NCBI RefSeq assembly: GCF_055900595.2
Contig: NZ_CM148325.1
Reading direction: 5' to 3' (one strand)
DNA: 64,000 bases
Shown piece after piece: positions 4,950 to 64,000 of the stretch. How positions within the stretch are numbered: position 1 is the first letter of the stretch; every line of letters starts with the position of its first letter. The notes beneath the pieces are model-generated. The model had not been told where the DNA came from, searched no databases, and saw only the letters and a program-made list of their open reading frames with translations. The position numbers were made by a program, and so were the translations under genes.

Positions 4950-5201
4950 GAAACTGATTTTCGCTATTAATAATCAGGGTATTTTTGCGTGAGATGTCGG
5001 TAAACATGATGTAGCTCTTGCCACTCATGACCAATCGCAGTATCTTTCTCCCGCGTCTGCAAAATCAGGCGTCGGGATTAGCCTCCTGAAGAAATCTTAT
5101 CGGCGACACATGACGCGCCAGCGTCTTTTTTTGTGTTGTTCGCACGGTTACACCTCAATGGTGGGCCGGGCGGGGGCGTCGCAAGACGCGCCAGTGTCCG
5201 A

Positions 5202-5295
5202 TAAGGCTGGTAAGGCTAACCCTGCCCGGTTCCACCACCCGCGAGATTAGCCTCTCCGGTGGTGGCTTGAACACCCACTTATCGGAGGTTGCCCT
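5202..5295 (+). promoter_or_regulatory. Conserved leader upstream of paralogous gene (second copy 51929-52022) with two mutually exclusive hairpins
   Basis: About 80 percent identity between the two leaders; stems GGCTAA/TTAGCC and CCACCACC/GGTGGTGG; one compensatory A-T to G-C change in copy 2. Confidence 0.35.
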
Positions 5296-5766
5296 ATGGC
5301 TACAATCCTCACCACTGACAGCGATTTACTCGATCTATTGACCGTCCCCTTCAATGCCACCACGGATTTCACTGTCCTTGCTGACTACTGCGCCCGCTTT
5401 GCCGAAACCCTGATTGAAACCGACGATCCCGCGCTACGACTGGCGCTCTGCGGGCGGCTTCACGCGGCTCTTGCGCTATTGCAACCCACACTACACGACC
5501 CCATCCCACCGCATCTTACCGAAAGCCTGACCGTGGATACCCTTCCCGCCACACCAGAGCACTTTATTTCCGAACCTGATTCCTTGTGCGAATACTGCCT
5601 CGCACTACTCCAGCTTCTGCTGGAACGTCCGGCGGAACCAAAAATGGAGCAAACCCTGACCGGGCTGCTGTGTGAGCTGGTCTGGTATTTCACGGAAGGA
5701 CTCAAAGCCCCGCGCTGGATGCGTACCGCCGACGGCGTAAAATTTATCAGCGAGGTGGCCGCATGA
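5296..5766 (+). CDS. Hypothetical acidic protein (paralog at 52023-52487)
   Basis: 156-aa ORF with GGAGG RBS 7 nt upstream; second diverged copy in window. Confidence 0.6.
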   Translation: MATILTTDSDLLDLLTVPFNATTDFTVLADYCARFAETLIETDDPALRLALCGRLHAALALLQPTLHDPIPPHLTESLTVDTLPATPEHFISEPDSLCEYCLALLQLLLERPAEPKMEQTLTGLLCELVWYFTEGLKAPRWMRTADGVKFISEVAA

Positions 5767-5903
5767 TGCAACAGGACTGGCATTCCGCCGACATTATTGC
5801 GGTGCTGAAAAAGCGGGGAACGCCTCTGGCGGCACAGAGAAAAACTCATTGCGGAAGCGCTGTAAATATCGCCAGAAATCATCTGGTCCTCAAGGTACTT
5901 TGA
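5763..5903 (+). pseudogene. Ner/Nlp-like DNA-binding protein, N-terminal remnant
   Basis: MMQQDWHSADIIAVLKKRGTPLAA resembles the Ner/Nlp N-terminus, then frame degenerates; overlaps integrase fragment. Confidence 0.35.
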
Positions 5904-6103
5904 TAGCAAAGGCAAGCTGGCTGGTTCAGTCCGGAGTCTCTCTTCTTGCACTTAAAGAGATGGGAGGATGGGAAACTCTCAAAAAGGTTCAGAGATACGC
6001 TCACCTTTCAGCCGGGCATCTCACCGAGCACGCAAGCAAAATCGGCACGATCATAAGTCGCAATGGCACAAATACGGCACAGGAGGAAGCGTGGTGTATT
6101 TAA
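5849..6103 (+). pseudogene. Tyrosine integrase C-terminal fragment
   Basis: LLALKEMGGWETLKKVQRYAHLS is a typical recombinase C-terminus with catalytic Tyr region; no N-terminal domains upstream. Confidence 0.6.
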
Positions 6104-6126
6104 ATATGGGGTAACTACTTGATTTA

Positions 6127-6145
6127 AATGGTGCGATAATAGGAA
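6127..6145. repeat. att core repeat: partial direct copy of thrW 3' end (matches 26845-26864)
   Basis: AATGGTGCGATAATAGGA vs AATGGTGCCGATAATAGGA at the tRNA 3' end, 18 of 19 identical. Confidence 0.6.
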
Positions 6146-6206
6146 CAATACACATAGGCGATAAGCTTTGTTTTTGTTGCCTTTTTTATTGTTCATTTTT
6201 TATAGA

Positions 6207-6227
6207 TACCCCCAAAAGTACCCCCAT
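6207..6227 (+). repeat. TACCCCCAAAAGTACCCCCAT motif near attR (copy also at 26714-26734 near attL/int promoter)
   Basis: 21-bp motif present once near each end of the element in the same orientation; possible integrase arm-type site. Confidence 0.4.
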
Positions 6228-6345
6228 ATCTTTTTCCGCCCCTGAAATTTGGTTGTTATTCATACAGCATATCAGGCGGTAACGCTCTCCCTTTAACCCA
6301 CTTATTGTATGATAGTGCTATCCCACAATAAGGAATCAGCCAGCC

Positions 6346-6705
6346 ATGAGAATGACCAGCCGTAAAAAAGAGATACTCAGTTATTTTGAGCCGGATAACC
6401 TAGAATGGGTGACAGGTGAGATTGGTGCGCCGCCGTTCGATGTGTCGGGCGTGGCCTACCTGCTTCATGGCATGGTGTCGTTCGATAAGCGCCACCAGCT
6501 CGAATCAACCCGGCGCACACTGGAAAGCATGGTTGCTGGTGGACTGCTTGAGCGGGTGACAGTGTATGAATCGCGTCAGGTACGGCGCGGCGGTGAGACT
6601 AACGCAACGGTCGTGCGCTACGGTTTACCCGGTCACTGCGCTGTTATGCGCGATACTGGCGGCGCTGATAACGCAATATCAGGCGAATACATGCGGGTCA
6701 GTTAA
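6346..6705 (+). CDS. Hypothetical protein
   Basis: 119-aa ORF, AAGGAA RBS 8 nt upstream; inverted repeat TTATTGT(N16)ACAATAA in promoter region. Confidence 0.5.
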   Translation: MRMTSRKKEILSYFEPDNLEWVTGEIGAPPFDVSGVAYLLHGMVSFDKRHQLESTRRTLESMVAGGLLERVTVYESRQVRRGGETNATVVRYGLPGHCAVMRDTGGADNAISGEYMRVS

Positions 6706-7240
6706 GAGCCTGCAATCTGTCGTTAATGTTGTTCAGGTCGTAAACCCGGCGTTCAATATCCAGCATCAGGAAATCGTGGATCTCGGCCTGTTCAGGATTA
6801 TCAGACTCTCTGGCCTGTAAGAGCAATTCATTGTAACCATGCAAACCACCCGAATTTTCCGCCGGGGTAGTGCCCTTCCCGCGCAAACAGCTAACAGGCT
6901 GGATACTGGTATCATGTGTTTGCTTCTCCAGCACAACAAGGCAATCCCACCAGTCGCCAAAGTCATACGTGTAAACCAGCTTGTCACCCTCATTCTGGAG
7001 CGCCGCCCATAGTGGCGTGATTGCCGCGTTACCCATGCTTTCATCCTCACCCCATACGCGATACTCGCTACCTGGATCACCTTTACGCCCTTTCTCGAAC
7101 ATATACAGGTGTTCGTCATTCCAGCCAAAAGCTAACTGGATCACGGCATGAAGTTTACTAAAGGGGATTTGCTCTGGAACCAGCACACGCCGCCATATTG
7201 GTGGTTTGCTGTCTCGGATGGTTATCTTTATCTGGTACAT
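6698..7240 (-). CDS. pRiA4b ORF-3-like family protein
   Basis: N-terminus MYQIKITIRDSKPPIWRRVLVPEQIPFSKLHAVIQLAFGWNDEHLYMF matches the characteristic start of this family. Confidence 0.6.
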   Translation of the reverse strand: MYQIKITIRDSKPPIWRRVLVPEQIPFSKLHAVIQLAFGWNDEHLYMFEKGRKGDPGSEYRVWGEDESMGNAAITPLWAALQNEGDKLVYTYDFGDWWDCLVVLEKQTHDTSIQPVSCLRGKGTTPAENSGGLHGYNELLLQARESDNPEQAEIHDFLMLDIERRVYDLNNINDRLQALN

Positions 7241-7283
7241 GCGTCGTGAACCAATAGTGTACGTTTAGGTGGGTATTTTTCTG

Positions 7284-7718
7284 CTACTGACCAGGATAGA
7301 GCTGATGTGCCGGGTCAAGCCAGACAATATGGAATACATTACCGATGAAAAATCCATGTATGCGACCATATTCATTGCGCGATATGGCAAATTGATAAGG
7401 TGTATAACTCTGAAACTGTTCATTCAAATGCTGAAATCCCTTAGGTTCAGATGTAGTTTGCCAATCAATCGGATGTGACTTCAACGAACCACCGCGATCG
7501 GTGGTGAACTCTCGTTCAGTCATAGTGGAAAGGTCTTTGAGGCGGTCTAACACCTTGCAAAAATAAACAGGATTCTGAGCGCTGAAAGTAAATTTCTCAT
7601 GCGCCGCATCGATATACCGAAAAGAAAAGTTGATGGTCGTTATGCCTGAACCTGTTCCCCCAGGCACTATTTTTGTTTGCGAGGGTGCAATCTTCGACGC
7701 CCTGATTCTTTTCGCCAT
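7284..7718 (-). CDS. Hypothetical 144-aa protein, candidate toxin/effector partner of Panacea-domain protein
   Basis: ORF starts 2 nt after the stop of the upstream Panacea gene; no recognisable motif. Confidence 0.5.
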   Translation of the reverse strand: MAKRIRASKIAPSQTKIVPGGTGSGITTINFSFRYIDAAHEKFTFSAQNPVYFCKVLDRLKDLSTMTEREFTTDRGGSLKSHPIDWQTTSEPKGFQHLNEQFQSYTPYQFAISRNEYGRIHGFFIGNVFHIVWLDPAHQLYPGQ

Positions 7719-7720
7719 AT

Positions 7721-8176
7721 TTAGGAAGCCATCGAACGATAAAACTCAGCCGTTACACTTTTATCAATAACATTCTTGCACGGCGCATCTGATGGAACCC
7801 CTTCACGGGCCTCCAGCCACGGCTTTTCTTGGTGCGTCATCTGCTCCAGCTCATAAGCTGTATAACCGCCAAATACCTCATAGATTTCCTTTAGATGCTT
7901 TGACACATTCGCAGGTAACTCAGGGCAGGCAATCTCTTCGTCTATTGAGCGCCATTTGTAATCTGCAAATCTGGTATACAAATCTCTGGCTACAGGGCCA
8001 TGTACCCATGCTTCAAACTTGTCAGCAACCAGTTCTTCGCCATCATTCAGCGCCATGAACCAAGCATCAGCATAGAACACCATTTTTTGCAGTTTCAGCG
8101 GCGTCATAACATCCCCATGCTCTTGAGCAAAGCAAAGCAGGTAATCCGCTACGCTGTTAAGGGTTGTAACTGCCAT
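7721..8176 (-). CDS. Panacea-domain protein (DUF4065, GepA/SocA-like antitoxin family)
   Basis: MTPLKLQKMVFYADAWFMAL...EAWVHGPV...YELEQMTHQEKPWLEAREG pattern; start moved to internal ATG at 8176 with AGGAG RBS. Confidence 0.75.
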   Translation of the reverse strand: MAVTTLNSVADYLLCFAQEHGDVMTPLKLQKMVFYADAWFMALNDGEELVADKFEAWVHGPVARDLYTRFADYKWRSIDEEIACPELPANVSKHLKEIYEVFGGYTAYELEQMTHQEKPWLEAREGVPSDAPCKNVIDKSVTAEFYRSMAS

Positions 8177-53519: not shown

Positions 53520-54383
53520 CTATTTTTTATGATAATCAACAATATCATGAATAATTATTTCATTTTCTGTTTCAGAATATAAAACTCTATCTCCCCCTCT
53601 TCCTTTACCACTTCCTGGTAAGTCGGCTGCTGATTTCCCTTTTAAATCACCATGTAAAGAATGCTGGTTTTTTCCTGACTCACCACGAGAAAGCATAATT
53701 TTAATAGCATCATAGGCTTCAGCTTGTTTTCCTTTGAGCGCATCCCCCTTCTTCGCCGCCAAATCCTCCTCTATGATGGTTTTCATTTGGGTAGGACATT
53801 TTTCACCTGCCAGCCCCCACGGGTCGCACCAACCCACCGGATTATGCACATAAGACTGCGTATCCAGCCCGCCGCTCAGTTTCAGCGGATCCTGGCTTAA
53901 ATACTGCCCCGTCCCGGCGTCGTAGTAGCGGTGTAAATTATACCACAGCCCGCTCTCCTCATCCTGCCACTGGCCCATGAAGCCCGCATCGCAGCTTTCA
54001 CGCTCACTGTCCGGCGAGTCGTTTGCAGCCAGCCCCCACAGGCTGCGGTGTTTCGTCCACACCTTCCGCCCGTTCGCGCAGTACATCTCCTGCGGCGCGC
54101 CGTCCGGGCCGGTCACTACCGGGTAAAAATAACTTCTGTCATCATTCGCCGCCCGGCTTTCCTTCGCCAGCAGTTCAAATCTGCCCCCGGTAGTGCCACT
54201 GCTCCCGTAGCGCCGGGCTGCCGTCTGCATAGCGTTTCTCACTTGTGGAAAGCGCCATCCCAAGCCACTGGTAGCGTACTTCGCTGATGGCGTGCGGGCT
54301 TCGTTTCCACGCTGCCCGGATAACGCAGCGTTTTGCCGTTCGTCTGCCAAAGGCGTCGTAGCTGTACTGCCACACTTCACCAT
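53520..54383 (-). CDS. Rhs C-terminal segment: end of core (PxxxxDPxGL) plus about 100-aa variable toxin domain; separated from core ORF by frameshift
   Basis: GLWYNLHRYYDAGTGQYLSQDPLKLSGGLDTQSYVHNPVGWCDPWGL then divergent C-terminus ending RVLYSETENEIIIHDIVDYHKK. Confidence 0.75.
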   Translation of the reverse strand: MVKCGSTATTPLADERQNAALSGQRGNEARTPSAKYATSGLGWRFPQVRNAMQTAARRYGSSGTTGGRFELLAKESRAANDDRSYFYPVVTGPDGAPQEMYCANGRKVWTKHRSLWGLAANDSPDSERESCDAGFMGQWQDEESGLWYNLHRYYDAGTGQYLSQDPLKLSGGLDTQSYVHNPVGWCDPWGLAGEKCPTQMKTIIEEDLAAKKGDALKGKQAEAYDAIKIMLSRGESGKNQHSLHGDLKGKSAADLPGSGKGRGGDRVLYSETENEIIIHDIVDYHKK

Positions 54384-57300
54384 CTGGTGTCTTTATCTCG
54401 CGCAGACGGTCGAAGTCATCCCAGCGGTAGCGCCACTCCTGCGGGCGAAAGCCGAGTTTTTGGTCGGTGCGCTTTGTCACCCTGCCGCAGGCGTCGTATC
54501 CGTAGCGGCTGTCACCGGCCTGGTTCACACATTCATTATTGTACTGGTGCTGCGACAGAATACCGTTTATCCGGCTTTCCGCTATCTGCTCATTGACCGT
54601 ATAGCGGTAGCGCTCTTCCTGTGCCGGACCACTGGCGTCCAGCCGCAGTACGCTGGTTATCTGGTCGCGGGCATCGTACTGGTAGCGCGTTTCCCGCTCC
54701 GTACGCGTTTTCGACCACACTTCATGCCCGGTCAGGCGGCCCGATTTATCCCACGCGTAACGGTGTTCGCCCAGCGGTCGCCACGATGCCACGCTCTGGT
54801 GGCTGCCTGCCAGCCGCTCTGCGCCCTGTTTTTGCCATGCCGTACGTCCGCAGGTGTCGTATCCCTGCTCCTGCATATAGACCGCATGGTTCAGCGGCGT
54901 CTGCGCCAGCCAGCTTTCCTCATCCTCCGGGCGGTAACGCCGATTTTTTTCAAGGCCCGCGGGGGAATGACTGAAGTCCATCCGGTGACCGTTGCTGCGG
55001 TAGCCCGTCAGAATGCCCGAAGCGTCGTATTCTCTCTGTGTTTCCCCGTCCGGCGTTGTGGTGCCAGTCAGCCTTCCGGCTTCGTCGTAACGGTACTCCG
55101 TGCGCTGGCCGTCCTGCTCTTCCGCCACCAGACGATGGCGTTCGTCCCACTCCAGTTTTACCTCACTGGTGAGCGTATAGCCTGCTTCACTGCCGTCGCT
55201 GCGCTCATACACCTGCGCACTCACCATCCGGTCATGGCGGTCGTACTGATAGCTGAGTTTCTGATGCTCGCCGCTGATGGTCGCCACCCGGCCATATTCA
55301 TCCCTCGCATAGCGCCATACGCTGCCGTCCGGGCGGTGTTTTTCTGCCAGCCGGCCCTGTTCATCACGGATATAGACGGTTCTGCGTCCCGACCAGTCCT
55401 CCTCCCCGGCCATCTGGCCCGCCGCATCGTAGTACAGCCGCCACTGCTGGTTGCCGCTGCGCGTAAGCTGCGTGAGCCTTGCGGCACCATCGTAGTCGCA
55501 AAGTATCCGCTGCCCGCCCGCGTCCTCCACTTCCCGCAGCAGGTCAAATGCCCCGTGGCGGTAGCGCGTGGTCTGGCCCATGGCCCCGGTGTGGAGAGTG
55601 ATTTTGCCTTCACCATCATAGCGGAAGGTTTCAGCGCCACCGTCGGCCCGGATTACTGCGCTCAGTTTCTCATGCGGGTTATCGGCACCGGGGCGGTACT
55701 GCCAGTTCACGCTGCGCCCTTCAGCATCCACCAGCCCCGTCAGCCGCAGCCAGCGGTCTTCCGTGTAATGGGTTGTGCGGCCTTCACCATCGGTATGGGA
55801 AAGCAGGCCACCGTGAGCGCTGTAGCTCCACTGTTCGTGGCTGCCGTCCGGGTACTGTATCTCCTTGAGCAGACCGTCTTCGGTATGACGGTACTGCCAG
55901 TTCTGCCCGTTCACCTCCCGGCGGATAAGATTCCCTTCGGCGTTATAATGGTACGCCGCCGTGGTGCGGTGGTCCTGGTATGCCGTAACCTGACCAAATT
56001 CATCCCACTGCCATTCACGTTTACGCCCGTTCTCGTCCGTTTCGCTCAGGATACGCCCGGCATAATCGCGTTTTATCTGAGTAATGCGCCCACCCGGCTG
56101 GCGAATACACAGCGGCTGGTCGTATTCGTTACGCTCCCATTCAGTGATACGCCCCAGCGGGTCACGCTGTTTTTTCAGCAGCCAGGACTCATCGAACCAC
56201 AGCGTGGTGGTGGCTCCGGTGGCATCGGTGTAATCGGTTCTGCGCTCCTCCGGGAAGTAGCGGAAGGTGTCGTTATACAGGCCTTCCTGTGTGCCTGTGG
56301 CAGTCACCCGGCCTTCATCGTCATAGCGCAGGTGGAAGTGCGTCGGGCCGTTGTCGCGCCAGGAACTCAGCCAGCCCTGTTCGGTATAGGTATAATGCAA
56401 CGCGCCATTAAAGCGGGTCTGCACATCGCTCAGTCGCTGTTCATCGCCGTGACTGATATAGTCATAGCGCACCAGCTCGCTGCCGTCTGACTCGTCGATC
56501 ACACGGAATATCTGCCCCTGCGGGCCACACATCACCCGCAGATTCAGGCCGCTGCTGTGGGTTACGTTTGTCAGTTGGCCGATGACGTTATAGGTGAAGC
56601 GAATTTCGTTGCGGTTGCGGTCTTTTATTGCCGTTAGCCGCAGGCGGCGTGCGCCGGGGGAGATGGGCGTAAAGATATAACCCAATTGTGAGTATTCGTC
56701 GAAGATAATAGCCCGCTCACGGTTTCCCAGGAGGCGATAGTGCGGGACAAGCAGGTTACGGCTACTGTATGGTGCCTGCTCCGTGGAGTAGGCCAGACAT
56801 AGCCCCTCAGCATCAAAGTAGGTGACGTTTTTCCCGTTGCAATCGAACTCCAGAAACTGCGACCAGTTACACAACCAGCGACTGCCCAGCAAACCACTAA
56901 CCGGATGTCGGCCTGTATAAGCACGTTTCAGCGTCAGCGGTAAAATATGCGGATAGTTGAAATCAGTTCGGTAATCCAGATATTCACCCGTTCCGGTATC
57001 CACCGGATCGCTGAACCCCTGACTGATACGCTCATTTGCGGCTCTGTTTAACTGCTTTGCTCCCCATAGAGCTGTTAACACTTCCAGACTTGATACAACA
57101 GATTGCTCCAGCACCGTCATATCGGCATTAATCGGCCCATACTGTCCGGTCGTCTTATCAGCCGTAATGGTTTTACATCCTTCCTGAATAACTGCCGAGC
57201 AGGTAATTTTATGGCCCTTACGCGCCAGCGGCAGGCTGTTGACGGAAATAATTTTGCTCCCTTCCACTATCTGTGGAGGAGGACTGCCCGGATCCTTACT

Positions 57301-57942
57301 ACATTCAACCGGATCAGTGACGCGAGCTACCGCTTTTCCTTCAAAAAAAACATTAGGAGAGCCTTCTACAATCTGTCCGGTTTCAGATGCCCAGCGGGAA
57401 CCAATTACCATCGCTGCGCCACCGACAAATCCACCAGCTAATCCCCCGGCCCCGGCAGCAACGGTGGCAGCCAGCACACCCAATGCCGCGCCCCCTGTAG
57501 CGACAACCAGAGCTCCCACTGCAATCCCTACAATAAGTCCACCGATTAACCCACCAATAGCACCCAGAAAGGAATTGTTATGAACAATGTGATGACCCAC
57601 ACACGCAGGTATATCTGTTGGGCCGGAAACTGCGTGATCTTTACCCCAGGTATCCATGAACCAGTCACCTGCTTTGGTGCCCAGCCATCCCCCCAGCATC
57701 CCGCCAACCAGTCCGGCAATCAAAGGGCCTCCAAATCCTGCAACAGCTTTGGCTATTCCGGCTGCACAGGTGTTTGCTGCTGCGGCTGCCAGTCCTACCT
57801 TTGCCGTTGCTCCCACCATACTGACAGCCATTATTCCAGTACTGGCAATATGTCCTGTGGTAGCAATACTCTCCACTGTTTCGGCATTACTGTCCCGTTG
57901 ATCCAGCTCCGCTAACTTCTCCTGCGCGCTTTTTTCCGTCAT
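54175..57942 (-). CDS. PAAR-Rhs protein, N-terminal and YD-repeat core (frameshifted relative to C-terminal segment)
   Basis: Gly-rich hydrophobic N-terminus, PAAR-like GSPNVFFEGKAVARVTDPVEC, many YD repeats (RYDDEGR, RYDGEGK, YRYDEAGRL). Confidence 0.85.
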   Translation of the reverse strand: MTEKSAQEKLAELDQRDSNAETVESIATTGHIASTGIMAVSMVGATAKVGLAAAAANTCAAGIAKAVAGFGGPLIAGLVGGMLGGWLGTKAGDWFMDTWGKDHAVSGPTDIPACVGHHIVHNNSFLGAIGGLIGGLIVGIAVGALVVATGGAALGVLAATVAAGAGGLAGGFVGGAAMVIGSRWASETGQIVEGSPNVFFEGKAVARVTDPVECSKDPGSPPPQIVEGSKIISVNSLPLARKGHKITCSAVIQEGCKTITADKTTGQYGPINADMTVLEQSVVSSLEVLTALWGAKQLNRAANERISQGFSDPVDTGTGEYLDYRTDFNYPHILPLTLKRAYTGRHPVSGLLGSRWLCNWSQFLEFDCNGKNVTYFDAEGLCLAYSTEQAPYSSRNLLVPHYRLLGNRERAIIFDEYSQLGYIFTPISPGARRLRLTAIKDRNRNEIRFTYNVIGQLTNVTHSSGLNLRVMCGPQGQIFRVIDESDGSELVRYDYISHGDEQRLSDVQTRFNGALHYTYTEQGWLSSWRDNGPTHFHLRYDDEGRVTATGTQEGLYNDTFRYFPEERRTDYTDATGATTTLWFDESWLLKKQRDPLGRITEWERNEYDQPLCIRQPGGRITQIKRDYAGRILSETDENGRKREWQWDEFGQVTAYQDHRTTAAYHYNAEGNLIRREVNGQNWQYRHTEDGLLKEIQYPDGSHEQWSYSAHGGLLSHTDGEGRTTHYTEDRWLRLTGLVDAEGRSVNWQYRPGADNPHEKLSAVIRADGGAETFRYDGEGKITLHTGAMGQTTRYRHGAFDLLREVEDAGGQRILCDYDGAARLTQLTRSGNQQWRLYYDAAGQMAGEEDWSGRRTVYIRDEQGRLAEKHRPDGSVWRYARDEYGRVATISGEHQKLSYQYDRHDRMVSAQVYERSDGSEAGYTLTSEVKLEWDERHRLVAEEQDGQRTEYRYDEAGRLTGTTTPDGETQREYDASGILTGYRSNGHRMDFSHSPAGLEKNRRYRPEDEESWLAQTPLNHAVYMQEQGYDTCGRTAWQKQGAERLAGSHQSVASWRPLGEHRYAWDKSGRLTGHEVWSKTRTERETRYQYDARDQITSVLRLDASGPAQEERYRYTVNEQIAESRINGILSQHQYNNECVNQAGDSRYGYDACGRVTKRTDQKLGFRPQEWRYRWDDFDRLREIKTPDGEVWQYSYDAFGRRTAKRCVIRAAWKRSPHAISEVRYQWLGMALSTSEKRYADGSPALREQWHYRGQI

Positions 57943-57972
57943 CTGTTCGTCCTTCCCGCTGAACTGGCTGGG

Positions 57973-58404
57973 TTATTTATCCTGTGGCATTCCAAAACAA
58001 AAATTCAATAATGCTCCCCGCATCGCTTTACGATCCTCCTCTGCCAGCGCCTGCGTTGAGGAATAGGTCAGCGTCAGTACTTGTCGCTCGTTCAGGATTA
58101 CCAGCAGCAACTGCTGTATCATCACCCCCTTGTTATCCCAGCTAAATTCCCAGTATTCCGCCGGGCGCTCCTGCACATGACAGCGTTCTTCTACGGTGAA
58201 CACCATTTTCGACAGTTCGGTACGGAATTTCTTTTTCTGCACCGCCAGATAGTCATCAAACTGCGCGCCTTCCGGCAATATTTCACGAGTGACAACTACA
58301 TTTGCTCCGGCAACCGCACTTAGTACTGGCGTCAGAATATTCATACTGCTGTCCTGCCAGTTTCCCGGCAGAGTGAAATGCCCTTCATTAATGAGATATT
58401 GCAT
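57973..58404 (-). CDS. DUF1795-like (Eag-family) T6SS effector chaperone
   Basis: 143-aa ORF in the canonical position between vgrG and the PAAR-Rhs gene. Confidence 0.6.
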   Translation of the reverse strand: MQYLINEGHFTLPGNWQDSSMNILTPVLSAVAGANVVVTREILPEGAQFDDYLAVQKKKFRTELSKMVFTVEERCHVQERPAEYWEFSWDNKGVMIQQLLLVILNERQVLTLTYSSTQALAEEDRKAMRGALLNFCFGMPQDK

Positions 58405-58436
58405 TGTTATTTTTCCCTGAAAATTAATGAAATGGA

Positions 58437-60656
58437 TTACTGTGGATTTAGCGCCAGATGGGTGGGTCCATCGAGGGTGATAGTGCCGTCTGAATTCATA
58501 ACAAGAGTGCTTTTTCCGACAGTCAACTTTATCTGCGTTGCTGCGGTAAGGTGTATCGCCCCGGTTTTTGACGTGATGGTGATATTCCCTTCTACCGTCT
58601 CCGTGCAGGTTCCCGTTTCTACCGTCACCTCGCGTTTACCCGTTTTCACCGTCAGAGACTGGTCGCCTTCCGTTACGGTAATATTCCGGTTGCCTTTGAT
58701 GGTTTCGGTATGCTTACCATCAACAAATTCCGTGCGGTCGATTTTTACCGTGGATGTTTCGTTATGAATGATGGTTTTCGTCCGATCTGCCTTTACCGTG
58801 TGTGTTTCGTTATTTTTCACGACGGTATTCAGATCTTTCTCCGCAAGAAACCTCACTTCTTCCGCCCCCGTTTTATCGTCAAAGCGCAGCATGTTTCCGT
58901 TGGTCGCCCCCCCCTGTAACGAGTGGCTGAATATCCCGCTCTGCGACGCCATGCCCGGTAGCCCCCACGGCGGCATGGTGTCCTGGTTGTAGGTGCGCCC
59001 CACGATAATCGGTAGATCCGGGTCGCCATTTTTGAAATCCACCAGCACTTCCTGGCCGATGCGCGGGATCTGGATCATGCCGAATCCTTTACCCGCCCAC
59101 GGATAGCTGACGCGGATCCAGCAGGAGCTGTTTTCGTCATTATTACCGTAACGATCCCAGCCAAACTGCACCTTCACCCGGCCATATTTATCCGTCCAGA
59201 TTTCCTGCCCTACCGGGCCGGTGACGATGGCGCTCTGCGGGCCTTTGGTGTGGGGTTTGCTCAGGGTTCGTTGTGGGCGGTAAACTTCGCGGGTGGGATG
59301 CAGTTCAAACGTGGTGACATAGGTAAAATGCTGATCCTGGCCGCTGTGCTGCGCGTTGTCCCGTAAAAACAGCGTGGTTTGTACCAACAGATATTCCTGA
59401 TTAATTTCTGCCGTCGGGTGATTCATCAACGTAAAGGTGTACCCGGTCATGAGGGTACGGATATGACCGGCCCCATGTGCCCGGCTGCCGGGGCTGCGCT
59501 GCGCTTCCATACGAATGCGCGTCAGCATCTCACCTTCGCCCGTAGTGAAGTAATCACCAGGCCATTCATAATGCTCATATTCAGCATGACCGGTATTACG
59601 CGGACTAGCCACGGTACTTTTAAGCAGCGAACGAGGCTTCATAAAATCAAAATCGTCCATCACCCACTTTCCAGTACGCAGTCTCTCACTGGCCGTAATG
59701 GTGTGGATAAATTCTTTGTCCAGTTTCAGCCCTTCCTGGTGCCACTCCACCAGTGGCGAGTCAGGGCACGCTTTATGACCATTGATGGCATCCGTCAGCA
59801 CCAGCGTATGGCAGTTCTCGCTGTGCTCAAACCACCAGTAGATTCCCCACTCCTGCATCAGGCGCTGGATGAAATCGAAGTCGGTTTCACCATACTGCAC
59901 CTGCCAGACGCGGGGTGGATAATTTTCCACCAGCCGCTTTTCCACCGGAAAGGAATATTCATCCAGTACTTCATCGAGAATATCCACCACGGTTTTGTTC
60001 TGGAACGCTTTGTAGTCGCTGGTATGGGTCAGCAGCTTCAGCCATGGCTCAATGCGTAATTCATACGTTACCGAACGGCCCTCATGGCCGACCACCCTCG
60101 CCGCCGTCACCAGCCCGCTGATATACCGTTTTCCGCCACCGTCCAGTTCGATACTGACGCACAGGTCTTTGCCTACCATGGGCTGAAGCGGCAGGTTGGC
60201 CGCGGGGGAAACGTATCCCAGGTTCAGGGCGTCCGGCGTTTTAAGCTGTACTGTGTAGGAAAACAGATTCCCAAGCCCTTCCGAACCATTCATGCCTGCG
60301 AACAGCAGCATCTGCGGCGGCACCGAACCACCACTTACTGTGACGTTATGCGCCCCCGGACCACCGGCTGCAAGCGACGCCGCCGCATCCTGAACTGCAC
60401 CAGCCATATCCGATATCCCTGCTGCTGCGGCGGCGGCTTGCGCAGCGGCTACTGCGGCTTTAACCAGACCTGACGGTTCCGGCAACGCACCAAACAGGTC
60501 CGCCACTGCCTGTTCTGCCATCTGCTCGGCGGCATCAGCTACATCGGTTGCGGCTGAACCTGTGCTCATACTGCCACTTTCGCCAGCTATTGGTGGTGTG
60601 GTGATGACGGGTCCACCGTTTCCAACTGGTTTATTACCCGTAGATACAAAACTCAT
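58437..60656 (-). CDS. vgrG: T6SS spike protein VgrG with about 110-aa Ala/Gly-rich N-terminal extension in frame
   Basis: gp27/gp5-like regions: [22 protein letters not shown]..., [46 protein letters not shown]. Confidence 0.9.
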
Positions 60657-60680
60657 GATATTTGCTCCTTTAATACCGGA

Positions 60681-61067
60681 TTAAAATCTAGCCCCTGGTG
60701 GCCAAAAAATATAAGTAATCACTCTCCATTGCCCGTCTTTATAATGAAACCAACATGTCAGATTCAAATCCCCCTGCAAATTCCAGAACATTTCCTTAAT
60801 AGGAACATTTTGAAATTCAGGATCTGTTATGCGATAAGTTTGATTCAAGCCGATATAATACTCACCAACAAATTTATATCGTGGCCTCACGAACTCATGA
60901 GCAGGCGGCCCATATTTCTTCATAAAAAAGATGTCATTACTTCCATCATGTATATCATTTTCTTCATAATATTTGGTGGATTGAGCAACTGCAGAAGGCG
61001 AGAAAACATTCACTGTAGTTATGTAAGTTATTGAAAGGAAAATCACTATAATACAGAAAAATTTCAT
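60681..61067 (-). CDS. Secreted protein (signal peptide), candidate immunity for metallopeptidase effector
   Basis: 128 aa MKFFCIIVIFLSITYITTVNVFSPSAVA...; conserved C-terminal half shared with 62776-63147. Confidence 0.55.
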   Translation of the reverse strand: MKFFCIIVIFLSITYITTVNVFSPSAVAQSTKYYEENDIHDGSNDIFFMKKYGPPAHEFVRPRYKFVGEYYIGLNQTYRITDPEFQNVPIKEMFWNLQGDLNLTCWFHYKDGQWRVITYIFWPPGARF

Positions 61068-61765
61068 TTGGTTACATTCAATAAAGTAAATTTAGTTTCA
61101 GGCATTATGACATTCAACGTTATAGTTGCGTTTTTAAGGTATCGTTCCCGAAGCTCCATTCCCACATTCATCAACCCACTAATATCTCCAACATACGGAG
61201 ACGAAGAATCATAATCATCATCTAAGTAACCAAGTACATGTCCGGCTTCATGAGGTATATTTACTTGCAACGTATTATTACAGTTAATACATTTCGCTAC
61301 TTTTTCCAGGTCCGCTGAATCAACATGAACCGTACTGTTTTTAAAATCAACATATGTTCTTAAATCAGCACCAGGCAAAACCTTTGTTGCAATAACCAAC
61401 CAGTCTTCATTCTGAGATGCAGAAATTATTCTTACATCAAAAGGCAAAGCTTTACCCTGAAATTTTTTAGCGAACTCAGATTCACCGGAAACAGAATAAG
61501 TTATTTTCCCATTCCATGCCTGCTGAACAGATAAATATATCGCTCGCATAAAAATAGCTTTTTCCCATATAATCCAGTCATCTGTAACGGTATTATCTTT
61601 ATACCACTCATACTTCCATCTTATCACAGCCGTAATCGAACCAGTATTTTGATTTAATAAATACGTCCTCCTACCATCCTTATGTATAATGATATCGCCA
61701 TCAATATTTGTTTTTTCATAGTATTCGGCCAGCAAACTATTCTCATCATATTTAAGCTTGGTCAT
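61064..61765 (-). CDS. Putative zinc metallopeptidase (HExxHxxGxxD), candidate T6SS cargo effector
   Basis: 233 aa with HEAGHVLGYLD motif; overlaps downstream gene by 4 nt; directly upstream of vgrG. Confidence 0.6.
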   Translation of the reverse strand: MTKLKYDENSLLAEYYEKTNIDGDIIIHKDGRRTYLLNQNTGSITAVIRWKYEWYKDNTVTDDWIIWEKAIFMRAIYLSVQQAWNGKITYSVSGESEFAKKFQGKALPFDVRIISASQNEDWLVIATKVLPGADLRTYVDFKNSTVHVDSADLEKVAKCINCNNTLQVNIPHEAGHVLGYLDDDYDSSSPYVGDISGLMNVGMELRERYLKNATITLNVIMPETKFTLLNVTK

Positions 61766-61831
61766 TTTACTCTCATTAAATACTAATTGTTTGTATCGAA
61801 AATATTATCTGGAAAAATATTATTTTATATA

Positions 61832-61977
61832 TTACGAGTATTGCCCCTTCAGCCGCAGCGCATCCACATACCGTCCTTCACTGCAGGGCAAGATTACGAA
61901 AGCCCGCCCCGCAAGGACTGACGCGAGGTAGTTTCTGTCCATGGCTGCTTTTATCATCTTACGTCTTAACCCTGCCT
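61832..61977 (-). pseudogene. H-repeat-associated (ISAs1-family) transposase 3' remnant fused in frame to truncated vgrG
   Basis: [24 protein letters not shown] matches the H-rpt protein C-terminus. Confidence 0.6.
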
Positions 61978-62419
61978 TGGTTTCGCCGTACTGCACCTGC
62001 CAGGCGCGGGGTGGATAATTTTCCACCAGCCGCTTTTCCACCGGAAAGGAATATTCATCCAGTACTTCATCGAGAATATCCACCACGGTTTTGTTCTGGA
62101 ACGCTTTGTAGTCGCTGGTATGGGTCAGCAGCTTCAGCCATGGCTCAATGCGTAATTCATACGTTACCGAACGGCCCTCATGGCCGACCACCCTCGCCGC
62201 CGTCACCAGCCCGCTGATATACCGTTTTCCGCCACCGTCCAGTTCGATACTGACGCACAGGTCTTTGCCTACCATGGGCTGAAGCGGCAGGTTGGCGGCG
62301 AGGGAGACATATCCGAGGTTCAGGGTGTCCGGGGTTTTAAGCTGTACTATGTAGGAAAACAGGTTTCCAAGCCCTTCCGAACCATTCATGCCTGCAAACA
62401 AAAGCAGCTGCGGCGGCAC
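61978..62419 (-). pseudogene. Truncated second copy of vgrG (first about 147 aa only)
   Basis: Near-identical to the N-terminal gp27-like region of the vgrG at 58437-60656 up to QVQYGET. Confidence 0.8.
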
Positions 62420-62430
62420 CGCACTACCAC

Positions 62431-62751
62431 TTACTGTGACGTTATGCCCCCCGGACCACCGGCAGCAAGCGACGCCGCCGCATCCTGAACTGCACCAGCC
62501 ATATCCGAGATCCCTGCTGCGGCGGCTGCGGCTTGCGCAGCAGCTACTGCGGCTTTAACCAGACCTGACGGTTCCGGCAACGCACCAAACAGGTCCGCCG
62601 CGGCCTGTTCTGCCATCTGCTCGGCTGCATCAGCTACATCGGTTGCGGCTGAACTGGCGCTTACAGCACTACTTTCTCCGGCTATCGGTGGCGTGGAGAT
62701 AGCTGGCCCACCGTTACTGCCAGATTTATTACCCGTAGATACAAAACTCAT
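62431..62751 (-). CDS. Ala/Gly-rich 106-aa ORF equivalent to the N-terminal extension of the intact vgrG, here separate because of a 1-nt indel
   Basis: [27 protein letters not shown]... about 85 percent identical to vgrG residues 1-105. Confidence 0.45.
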
Positions 62752-62775
62752 GATATTTATTCCTTTAATATCGGA

Positions 62776-63147
62776 TTAAAATTTTGCGCCCGGCGGCCAG
62801 AAAAAATAAGAAATAACCCGCCACTGTCCATCTTTATAATGAAAAAAACATGTCAGATTTAAATCCCCCCGCAAATGCCAAAACATTTCTTTGATGGGGA
62901 TATTTCTGAATTCAGGATTCGTTGAGCGATAGACATTTTCAATCTCTATATAATACTCACCGACTAATTTATAACGAGGCTTTATAAATTCATACGCTGG
63001 CTGACCATAGTTATTTAATAGAACATTCTCTTCAACTCCATTATACACACCACTCGCATTCAGATAAGCATACCCAGGAATATCAGACATGCTATTTTTC
63101 GCCCCACCCACTATCAAAAAAATAATCACAGCGTATATTAGTTTCAT
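62776..63147 (-). CDS. Secreted protein (signal peptide), paralog of candidate immunity at 60681-61067
   Basis: Conserved C-terminal half KPRYKLVGEYYI...PIKEMFWHLRGDLNLTCFFHYKDGQWRVISYFFWPPGAKF. Confidence 0.5.
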   Translation of the reverse strand: MKLIYAVIIFLIVGGAKNSMSDIPGYAYLNASGVYNGVEENVLLNNYGQPAYEFIKPRYKLVGEYYIEIENVYRSTNPEFRNIPIKEMFWHLRGDLNLTCFFHYKDGQWRVISYFFWPPGAKF

Positions 63148-63160
63148 TTTTTTACGCTTT

Positions 63161-63882
63161 TCACAAAAAATTAGAACCCGGAACCATTCTATTTAACCGC
63201 TCAATGACATTTCCCATATAACGAGAGCGCAGTTCCATACCAATATTCATTAACGCACTGGCATCCCCGGAGAATGGTGTAGTTGCTTTATCTGCATCAT
63301 CACTATAGTATTCATCGGTAAGATATCCAATAATATGCCCAAGCTCATGAGACAGCCCCATTTGCTTAGAGCAAACTTTTGATGAACCAAGACATTTAGC
63401 TGCTGCAACTATATCTTTAGAGTCAAGTTCAACGTATCGACTATTCCAGACAATGGAACTCTGACGAAAACTATTTGGATCATCATTATCAATTTTAAAC
63501 ACCACCACATCCCAATACCCATGACGATCAGTCTGAATTATTTCTATTGTGAAAGATAAATCCTTACCATTAAACTTACTGACAAACTCAGACTTCCCAG
63601 AAACGGATAAAAAAACCTTATTATTCCATGTTTGATTAATGACAAAAATAACTTTTCCATGAAAGGCTTTTTTTCCATATCTGTCCAATCAGTTTTTGCA
63701 TCCCATCTTTTTATCCAATTATATTTCCATCTCAGCAACAATGAGATTGCACCATTTTCACGGTCAATTCTTAAATCTCCCCAGGCATCATTGTCCCTGA
63801 TATATCGTTTATCCAGCATTAAGTCGTCATAAGCATCGTATGCCTGCTGAATAGCCTCATCATGAGAGTCACCCATGTTCAC
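63161..63882 (-). pseudogene. Paralog of metallopeptidase effector (HELGHIIGYLTDEY), split by a frameshift at a T7 run near 63668-63674
   Basis: Two overlapping ORFs (63544-63882 and 63161-63688) jointly align to 61064-61765. Confidence 0.6.
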
Positions 63883-64000
63883 CTCCTTATATTGCTATAT
63901 ATCCAATAAACCTGAAGATGCTTGCTTACCCACCAACGCAGACGGGACCAAGGGTAGCCTGAAGTCAACAGATAGCAATCAACTTGAAGTTCATGGGGAT

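Follow-up and report, generated by a model that had tools for sequence, protein, structure and literature searches.

A probable cassette-replacement scar in the Escherichia coli T6SS-1 cluster, with a decaying effector module and an intact immunity gene

The genes described here belong to the E. coli T6SS-1 island adjoining yafV, and were analyzed in a 64,000-nucleotide stretch of contig NZ_CM148325.1 (the window). In related strains, an ISAs1 fragment adjoins yafV. The variable part of the cluster has the order tssM-tagF-[effector-immunity]-vgrG-eagR-rhs, with the effector-immunity pair located between tagF and vgrG in both E. coli and Citrobacter. Module B of the window is intact, and 3' of its vgrG gene lie a DcrB/EagR-like gene (57973-58404) and then a PAAR-Rhs gene. 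Upstream of it sits a second effector-immunity-vgrG module, module A (effA-immA-vgrG-A, minus strand, 61832-63876), in which immA is the only gene that is still intact. The initial annotation of the window had reported such a degenerate second module, and the features it described are indeed present on the minus strand. A scan of positions 60600-64000 for promoters and terminators returned no more sites than shuffled sequence did. The two modules and the joint between them are composed of the following features.

58437..60656, minus strand: vgrG-B, an intact VgrG of 739 aa (ORF list and neighbourhood comparison)
60681..61067, minus strand: immB, an intact immunity-like protein of 128 aa whose start overlaps the effB stop (ORF list and comparison)
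61064..61765, minus strand: effB, the intact metzincin-like putative effector of module B, 233 aa
61832..61883, minus strand: 3' remnant of tagF, 52 nt, the left edge of the putatively incoming module B (homology to strain 06-00048)
61884..61978, minus strand: 3' remnant of an ISAs1-family (H-repeat) element, 95 nt, reaching the element end (transposase-gene identity)
61979..62751, minus strand: 5' fragment of vgrG-A, the first 258 codons, including an Ala-rich N-terminal extension of ~110 aa (alignment with vgrG-B and VCSW7)
62776..63147, minus strand: immA, an intact immunity-like protein of 123 aa (ORF comparison)
63144..63876, minus strand: effA, a pseudogene of a metzincin-like putative T6SS effector with two 1-nt deletions (alignment to intact copies)

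The part of vgrG-A that is retained shares about 90% DNA identity with vgrG-B and with the vgrG of strain VCSW7. Homology to vgrG ends at 61979, which is 147 codons past the GTG at 62419 and codon 258 of the full gene, and TIGR03361 matches the fragment with 96 bits (cut-off 186), covering profile positions 10-145 of 513 only. Judged by sequence, 61979-62751 represents the 5' part of a vgrG and not a VgrG/TssI spike, which would have the full gp27-like plus gp5-like architecture. The ISAs1 remnant that follows matches the 3' ends of annotated ISAs1-family transposase genes at 95.9% identity and keeps the transposase reading frame over the last ~24 codons, after which there is a 2-nt deletion; the match extends to where independent copies diverge, which is the IS end. 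This stretch is a dead remnant, without a complete transposase gene or both ends. The last piece of the joint is homologous to the tagF C-terminus and the tagF-effB' spacer of strain 06-00048, and it provides the tail and stop codon of a chimeric 195-aa ORF. That vgrG is cut after about 147 aa and fused to an H-repeat remnant had been recognized in the initial annotation, and both the homology end and the ISAs1 identity agree with this; the chimeric ORF had been described from these two parts alone, however, and the tagF remnant (61883-61832) was overlooked.

In addition to the truncation, the reading frames of module A are broken by 1-nt deletions, each of which was located by alignment.

62447..62452: frameshift in vgrG-A, one base lost from a plus-strand C6 run; intact form GCGCCCCC
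63165..63170: frameshift 2 in effA, a 1-nt deletion in a gene-strand T run near the 3' end (A6 on the plus strand)
63668..63674: frameshift 1 in effA, a 1-nt deletion in a gene-strand A run (T7 on the plus strand)

When intact, as it is in AR_0077, R32_14_1F, VCSW7 and E04, effA encodes 244 aa, and alignment with the intact copies identifies the ORFs 63882..63544 and 63688..63161 as two halves of this single gene. At the site of frameshift 1 the run is 8 long in R32_14_1F, while the gene strand of AR_0077 and VCSW7 reads GAGAAAAAT; in the R32 lineage the run was lengthened to 8 through point substitutions, and the base was lost afterwards. At frameshift 2 the window has A6 versus 7 in all four comparison strains, and the deletion alters the last effA codons and destroys the ATGA overlap with the immA start, an overlap of effector stop and immunity start codons that provides translational coupling in intact copies. 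In vgrG-A, intact copies read GGGGGCGC where the window reads GGGGGGC, and the missing base divides the gene into a 106-aa ORF (62751..62431) and the 195-aa ORF (62419..61832). The same deletion is present in the complete genome of R32_14_1F and absent in AR_0077. These alignments confirm that the effector is split at a T7 run and that the N-terminal extension of vgrG is detached by a 1-nt indel at a C-run, as had been proposed. The three inactivating lesions listed originally are thus all genuine, but the list lacked the A6 frameshift of effA, the 2-nt deletion within the IS remnant and the tagF remnant.

We considered whether the frameshifts could be sequencing or assembly errors in homopolymers, with effA whole and the vgrG-A fragment in one piece in the real genome. 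Of the four 1-nt indels, three do lie in or beside runs of 6-7 identical bases, and the neighbouring rhs gene is also frameshifted, in a C5 run. However, two assemblies made independently by different submitters, an NCBI assembly (L009) and an ENA contig with a SPAdes-style name (L010), match the window base for base (100% identity over 10,457 bp, 64000..53544) with every module A lesion included, and the exact frameshifted 110-aa N-terminal fragment of effA is found on at least 35 public contigs, from which we conclude that the lesions are real. The vgrG deletion that is held in common with R32_14_1F also argues against error, as does a housekeeping backbone that is nearly free of indels relative to other E. 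coli: eight complete genomes match it at 100% identity over 5.3 kb, and alignment with strain 40EC covers one stretch of 6.5 kb without gaps and another of 10.8 kb with 4, which is no excess of indels. Assembly error is for practical purposes refuted, and we regard it as extremely unlikely.

A different proposal would be that the homopolymer tracts are contingency (phase-variable) switches by which the A-type effector and spike are reversibly turned on and off. While the location of the indels in A/T and G/C runs, and the R32-lineage effA run that reached 8 before losing a base, would both suit such switches, the tracts are short (6-8 nt), effA could be restored only by two independent reversions, and the truncation of vgrG-A is irreversible. 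Moreover, tract length is invariant among the independent assemblies of the lineage, with no polymorphism in any of the tracts compared. We consider phase variation highly improbable here.

The similarity between the two modules is far above chance, as effA and effB share 35% protein identity (BLASTP E=2e-48) and immA and immB share 51% (BLASTP E=1e-49). Its distribution along the DNA is uneven. No DNA similarity could be detected between effA and effB or between the 5' halves of the two immunity genes, and the DNA shared by the modules begins no earlier than midway through the immunity gene, where the adjacent sequence is 90-100% identical. The shared DNA consists of a pair of repeats with 90.5% identity over 1008 bp (62980..61979 vs 60885..59883), as delimited by DNA alignment.

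61979..62980, minus strand: repeat copy A, comprising the immA 3' half, spacer and vgrG 5' part
59883..60885, minus strand: repeat copy B, comprising the immB 3' half, spacer and vgrG-B 5' part
62005..62296, minus strand: a 292-bp tract that is 100% identical between the repeats (59909-60200 in copy B)

The initial annotation had assigned conserved C-terminal and divergent N-terminal halves to both protein pairs. This is an accurate description of the immunity proteins, where identity is 5-35% in the N-terminal half and 55-85% in the C-terminal half, but not of the effectors, which are 17-50% identical throughout, with peaks at conserved motifs. Recombination between the modules had also been suggested, and it is supported by the 292-bp identical tract together with a related assembly (L011) that has the structure of a deletion product of a crossover within this tract. 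L011 might instead reflect a misjoin of short reads at the identical tract, although one further contig with a similar arrangement is on record. The 1-kb direct repeats (immunity 3' half and vgrG 5' part) can still be recombinogenic, such that module B might be deleted again.

The same comparison bears on the earlier description of module A as a tandem duplicate. If a single effector-immunity-vgrG module had been duplicated in tandem in situ, and its upstream copy had then diverged and decayed, this would fit the identical gene order, the three homologous gene pairs and the 1-kb segment of high identity that A and B have in common. It does not fit a pattern in which effector genes and immunity 5' halves without DNA similarity lie beside 90-100% identical DNA, a mosaic that points instead to recombination between alleles. 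Nor would a simple duplication of these three genes be expected to leave an IS end and a 3' fragment of tagF in the joint. In other strains each module type is found alone at the same locus, and among 5426 complete genomes there are no near-identical tandem modules that lack an IS or tagF scar. With effectors that match at 35% as proteins and not at all as DNA, and a joint containing an ISAs1 end and 52 nt of tagF, the duplicate description fails, and we judge an in-situ duplication to be very unlikely.

In E04 and related strains an A module stands alone, intact and with its vgrG complete, and provides the intact counterpart of the second module that had been called for. VCSW7 carries an intact effA-immA pair beside a vgrG of 2178 nt whose annotation gives the C-terminus as missing, and strain 06-00048 has a stand-alone B-like module adjoining an intact tagF. 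The vgrG::ISAs1 junction is present in 32 of the 5426 complete genomes and effB in 34, and this identical junction points to a single old event. In AR_0077, which has the tandem arrangement, effA and the vgrG-A fragment are free of frameshifts; the decay of module A is therefore lineage-specific and no necessary outcome of the tandem arrangement. Tandem B-like and A-like modules are also seen in two Citrobacter farmeri loci (L017 and L018), where vgrG 5' fragments and tagF 3' remnants separate them.

That the joint contains the end of an ISAs1 element and the final 52 nt of tagF indicates that a foreign cassette was brought in. We consider it very probable that the variable part of the cluster bears here the scar of a cassette replacement, in which module A is decaying and immA has been kept. 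From what is observed (the anatomy of the locus, its lesions and their reproducibility, the chimeric joint and the strain distribution), we can infer an order for IS insertion, joining and deletion, though no unique reconstruction. A resident module A would have been joined to an incoming heterologous module B, which brought with it the last ~50 nt of a tagF that had previously been interrupted by an ISAs1 element. The joining would have removed vgrG-A past codon 258 and all of the IS except 95 nt, giving vgrG-A'::'ISAs1::'tagF-effB-immB-vgrG-B. With the working spike and effector now supplied by module B, module A would be dispensable for attack and free to decay, and in this lineage vgrG-A would have gained its one deletion and effA its two, in homopolymer runs.

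Retention of the immunity gene is the other half of this proposal. The immA ORF is intact in all six loci compared (the window and five others), and the exact protein is found on 248 contigs. An intact immA beside an effA with two frameshifts, with the pair intact in other strains, is the arrangement of a displaced effector, and immA is likely an orphan immunity gene. Its most likely present role is protection from strains that fire the A-type effector.

There is published precedent for such a replacement in Vibrio cholerae, where T6SS effector genes have been displaced one after another, giving rise to orphan immunity arrays (Kirchberger et al. 2017, PMC5361080). By analogy, the E. coli locus would share with these arrays the addition of an incoming effector-immunity module by horizontal transfer and recombination, the loss or inactivation of the older effector while its immunity gene is kept, and the scars and mosaic structure produced by recombination in conserved flanks. 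The two differ in layout. The V. cholerae modules lie downstream of structural genes and vgrG, whereas the E. coli module lies upstream of vgrG and includes its 5' part, so that the displaced gene is the spike (vgrG-A). Unlike in V. cholerae, where the old effector is largely removed, effA survives as a frameshifted pseudogene, and the joint is marked by the end of an ISAs1 element together with a piece of tagF.

Enterobacteriaceae also have orphan rhs-CT/rhsI and cdiA-CT/cdiI modules, which lie downstream of their Rhs and CDI loci, and H-repeat (ISAs1) elements are classically associated with the Rhs elements of E. coli. The present locus resembles these systems in having tandem remnants of displaced toxin-immunity cassettes with a recombination arm in common with the active gene and, as with Rhs elements, ISAs1/H-repeat copies in the same island. 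However, the arm here is formed by the 3' half of the immunity gene, the 5' part of vgrG and the 3' end of tagF, not by the core of Rhs or the VENN region of CdiA, and the toxin is a free-standing protein rather than a C-terminal domain. The cassette relic is an ordinary evolutionary scar of a kind already understood, and it leaves the current view of T6SS evolution unchanged. Its value is as a base-resolved case of effector turnover in E. coli T6SS-1, in which a cassette was probably added, the old spike cut, the toxin decayed and the antidote kept. The homology arms and scars involved can be traced in it (3' fragments of tagF, 5' fragments of vgrG and the end of an IS), and its direct repeats illustrate how a cassette can be deleted again. 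For annotation, genes called hypothetical and partial pseudogenes in the tagF-vgrG interval are best read as effector-immunity cassettes or what is left of them.

The locus further draws attention to a testable, unnamed effector family with a metzincin-like fold, to which effA and effB, as putative T6SS effectors, are assigned. Pfam returned no match for effB and, for effA, only M64 (E=0.016) and M57 (E=0.24), neither of which is significant; NCBIfam returned none for either protein, and neither database gave a significant family for immA or immB. The effB sequence had no match in the PDB, and a family profile searched against PDB sequences gave motif-level matches only, all at E>=0.01 (best E=0.01). 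Family members were collected with an exhaustive representative search, as a word-indexed search yielded close relatives only. AlphaFold was run on the resulting alignment of 94 diverse members, a 7-sequence alignment having given an unusable model (pLDDT 44). The 94-member model is predicted to have the fold of a metzincin catalytic domain, at 7-20% sequence identity to solved structures. The zinc-binding motif HExxH and its third ligand, in the form HExxHxxGxx(H/D), are strongly conserved among the 94 members, with H172, E173 and H176 invariant and G175 and D183 at least 90% conserved.

Some family members contain LysM or PG_binding_1 domains, and a hydrophobic, signal-like segment can be read at the N-termini of both immA and immB, which together are consistent with a periplasmic or peptidoglycan target. 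Toxicity of the effectors and a protective function of immA are suggested by genomic context, the predicted fold and the signal-like peptide. For the distant members P0091, P0100 and P0088, the contigs are short or have no T6SS genes within 6 kb. No name for the effector family, for the vgrG::ISAs1 junction or for the N-terminal extension of VgrG turned up in the open-access literature. We tentatively propose, with slightly more doubt than belief, that effA, effB and their signal-peptide partners represent an uncharacterised, polymorphic family of metzincin-fold T6SS effectors in Enterobacteriaceae that acts in the periplasm or on peptidoglycan. Such a family would diversify through cassette exchange, for which the 3' end of tagF and the immunity 3' half together with the 5' end of vgrG would serve as fixed homology arms; specificity would reside in the effector and the variable N-terminal half of a bipartite immunity protein, and arrays of these cassettes with vgrG and tagF fragments between them, like those of the window and of Citrobacter farmeri, would be the fossil record of the exchange. 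Compared with metzincins such as snapalysin (M7), ulilysin, the adamalysins/ADAMs and astacin, the modeled family has an additional, beta-rich N-terminal part.

The window covers an E. coli chromosome segment in the order phoE-crl-frsA-gpt-pepD ... fadE-ivy-yafV, after which comes the distal end of the T6SS-1 island. This island is located between yafV and the tRNA-Asp gene adjoining dnaQ, and its genes are encoded on the minus strand. In contigs that match the window exactly, tssJ-tssK-tssL-...-tssM-tagF-tge2-tgi2 lie upstream. As the initial annotation held, a degenerate effector-immunity-vgrG module (module A) is present upstream of an intact one (module B), with similarity far beyond chance: 90.5% DNA identity over 1008 bp, and BLASTP E values of 2e-48 (effectors) and 1e-49 (immunity proteins). 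The genes are as follows (asterisk, broken; prime, partial).

63876..63144, minus strand: effA*, putative metzincin-like T6SS effector, first gene inward from the window end
63147..62776, minus strand: immA, immunity-like partner of effA
62751..61979, minus strand: vgrG-A', partial vgrG
61978..61884, minus strand: 'ISAs1, insertion sequence remnant
61883..61832, minus strand: 'tagF, tagF remnant
61765..61064, minus strand: effB, putative metzincin-like T6SS effector
61067..60681, minus strand: immB, immunity-like partner of effB
60656..58437, minus strand: vgrG-B
58404..57973, minus strand: DcrB/EagR-like gene
57942..53520, minus strand: PAAR-Rhs gene

Every lesion listed in the initial annotation is present; a second effA deletion and the tagF remnant had been overlooked. 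Alignment with the intact 244-aa copies of AR_0077, R32_14_1F and VCSW7 confirms that effA is split by a 1-nt deletion in a gene-strand A run (plus-strand T7 run, 63668-63674), leaving 110/112-aa and 175-aa ORFs. The second 1-nt deletion lies close to the effA 3' end (plus-strand A6, 63165-63170; 7 in all comparison strains), altering the last codons and removing the ATGA stop/start overlap with immA. Alignment with vgrG-B and other strains likewise establishes the 1-nt indel in vgrG-A (GGGGGCGC -> GGGGGGC, plus-strand C6 run, 62447-62452), which separates a 106-aa Ala-rich N-terminal part from the remainder.

The reported in-frame fusion of the cut vgrG to an ISAs1-family (H-repeat) 3' remnant is also found. 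Homology of vgrG-A stops at 61979, leaving 258 of the full gene's codons (147 counted from an internal GTG). From there the sequence matches the 3' ends of annotated transposase genes of the ISAs1 family at 95.9% identity and is in the transposase frame. This IS remnant is only 95 nt long, has a 2-nt deletion, and reaches the IS terminus at 61884. The following 52 nt are a tagF 3' end, and the tail of the 195-aa ORF matches the TagF C-terminus of strain 06-00048, in which a B-like module (89% DNA identity) directly follows an intact tagF. With the IS and tagF 3' ends following vgrG-A' in succession, the 195-aa ORF is a chimera in three parts (VgrG', transposase' and TagF'); module B most likely came in along with the tail of a tagF gene bearing an ISAs1 insertion.

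The VgrG proteins of this cluster have an Ala-rich N-terminal extension of ~110 aa before the canonical gp27-like start (60327-60656 and 62431-62751, minus strand), the first 33 residues of which are 70% conserved in Citrobacter farmeri; no description of it was found in the open-access literature searched. An N-terminal extension on VgrG would point toward the Hcp tube.

The frameshifts could in principle be assembly errors, which the initial annotation named as its refuting condition; this reading fails against independent data. Two independent assemblies of this lineage, L009 (NCBI GCA_048019945.1) and L010 (ENA, SPAdes-style contig name), show 100% identity and no gaps over window 64000..53544. 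The 110-aa effA fragment is found unchanged on at least 35 public contigs, filed under several independent NCBI accessions, and the unchanged 195-aa chimera on four. The vgrG-A deletion is also found in the complete genome of R32_14_1F, and the housekeeping part of the window shows almost no indels against other E. coli, and eight complete genomes match it at 100% identity over 5.3 kb. The frameshifts are therefore real. In L010, gene calling divides tssM (4081-7947) into ORFs of 580 and 670 aa rather than giving one of 1288 aa, which may be another T6SS core lesion in that isolate.

The strain alignments indicate that the lesions built up stepwise once the joint had formed, since increasing sets are carried by AR_0077 (effA intact, vgrG-A fragment without frameshift), R32_14_1F (vgrG-A frameshift, effA intact) and the window lineage (vgrG-A frameshift and both effA deletions). 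All six loci compared retain an intact immA; where records annotate it at 104 aa, an alternative start has been called. Downstream of vgrG-B, the main PAAR-Rhs effector gene is frameshifted at a plus-strand C5 run (54184-54188; one extra C compared with strain 40EC). This breaks it into two overlapping ORFs of 1255 aa and 287 aa, the shorter of which carries the C-terminal toxin region. The lesion is real in the lineage, as the independent assemblies L009-L011 yield the same 1255-aa call. Complete genomes with an identical backbone have the entire T6SS-1 deleted, which together with the PAAR-Rhs frameshift suggests relaxed selection on the T6SS in this clade.

The view that module A arose by tandem duplication in situ does not hold. 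The effectors are 35% identical over their full length with no detectable DNA similarity, and the shared DNA sets in sharply midway through the immunity gene (62980 in copy A, 60885 in copy B). The contrast of divergent N-terminal and conserved C-terminal halves, initially described for both protein pairs, applies to the immunity proteins (5–35% versus 55–85% identity) but not to the effectors, which lack a two-part pattern. Each module type also stands alone at this locus: strains with an intact version of module A do exist (E04 and relatives, with a complete vgrG), and 06-00048 has a B-like module. VCSW7 has an intact effA-immA pair beside a 2178-nt vgrG annotated as missing its C-terminus, and 40EC has a third allele, which is again homologous to B from vgrG as far as the last ~275 nt of the immunity gene, these included. 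Of 5426 complete E. coli genomes, 18 have effA, 34 have effB (33 of them a near-identical form), 32 have the vgrG::ISAs1 junction (GF4-3 adds a match at 79% coverage), and four have the A-B tandem (AR_0077, OZ197100, R32_14_1F and PapRG-06-5). The junction is identical across all aligned strains, and persists where most of T6SS-1 is lost, as in strain L73. Mosaic identity, stand-alone modules and an identical junction fit a heterologous cassette acquired once, long ago.

The proposal that recombination shaped the modules is well supported. All differences between repeats A and B fall within 62980-62297, and the tract 62296-62005 is 100% identical between copies; as AR_0077 differs in this tract, gene conversion or a recombination breakpoint is suggested here. 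A third assembly of the lineage, L011 (GCA_047778155.1, 9877-13400), has the same effA and vgrG-A frameshifts and lacks 'ISAs1-'tagF-effB-immB. Its switch from A-type to B-type sequence falls inside the identical tract (292 bp), and its sole cluster vgrG is an A/B hybrid bearing the N-terminal frameshift, the structure expected from homologous deletion between the repeats. L011 either is such a deletion in reality or results from short reads misjoined across the 292-bp tract; a comparable arrangement is recorded for a second contig.

Similar joints recur. In L009 (9688-9798, ~80-190 bp past position 64000), there is a 111-nt tagF 3' copy between tgi2 and effA, 89% identical to the resident gene, and a 111-nt partial CDS is annotated in the same place in VCSW7 (TagF domain-containing) and R32_14_1F (cytoplasmic protein). 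By analogy with the 52-nt tagF remnant of the module joint, this piece looks like the scar of an earlier tge2-tgi2 cassette insertion. Two Citrobacter farmeri loci (L017/L018, 5001-10702) carry tagF-tge2-tgi2-effB-like-immB-like-vgrG(1-33), then effA-like-immA-like-vgrG(1-297) with tagF remnants attached; another gene pair and a complete vgrG come next. Both metzincin modules are intact there, in tandem, separated by 33-codon and 297-codon vgrG 5' fragments and tagF C-terminal remnants; this is the same cassette logic in another genus, without the IS remnant. The recurrence of this architecture argues for serial addition of cassettes bounded by tagF 3' and vgrG 5' pieces.

The arrangement parallels the displaced-effector and orphan-immunity arrays of Vibrio cholerae (PMC5361080) as well as orphan Rhs and CDI modules. 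Unlike in those systems, the cassette is placed upstream of vgrG and takes in the 5' part of that gene, which makes the spike gene the truncated one, and the joint is marked by an ISAs1 end and a tagF fragment. The observation is confirmed: what is seen is a decayed module, of a known kind, and neither a duplication nor an assembly artefact; of the original interpretation, decay and recombination stand and duplication falls.

A modest lead is the unnamed metzincin-like effector family with its cassette-exchange arms. Neither effA nor effB has a significant match to any Pfam or NCBIfam model. An exhaustive profile search returned 358 representative clusters at 50% identity, typically of ~215 aa, sharing the motif HExxHxxGxxD(E)Y...D..S.MN.G..LR.R. 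Members are widespread, Bacteroidota, myxobacteria and Sphingomonas included, are almost all annotated as uncharacterized, and in a few cases are fused to LysM or PG_binding_1 domains. For one distant member the next gene is small and overlaps it, and the surrounding 6 kb lack T6SS genes; the family may represent a polymorphic toxin domain of more general use than in T6SS alone. The immA and immB products both open with a signal-like hydrophobic segment, and we infer that effA and effB encode putative periplasm-acting zinc metallopeptidase effectors, partnered by a putative periplasmic immunity protein and possibly targeting peptidoglycan.
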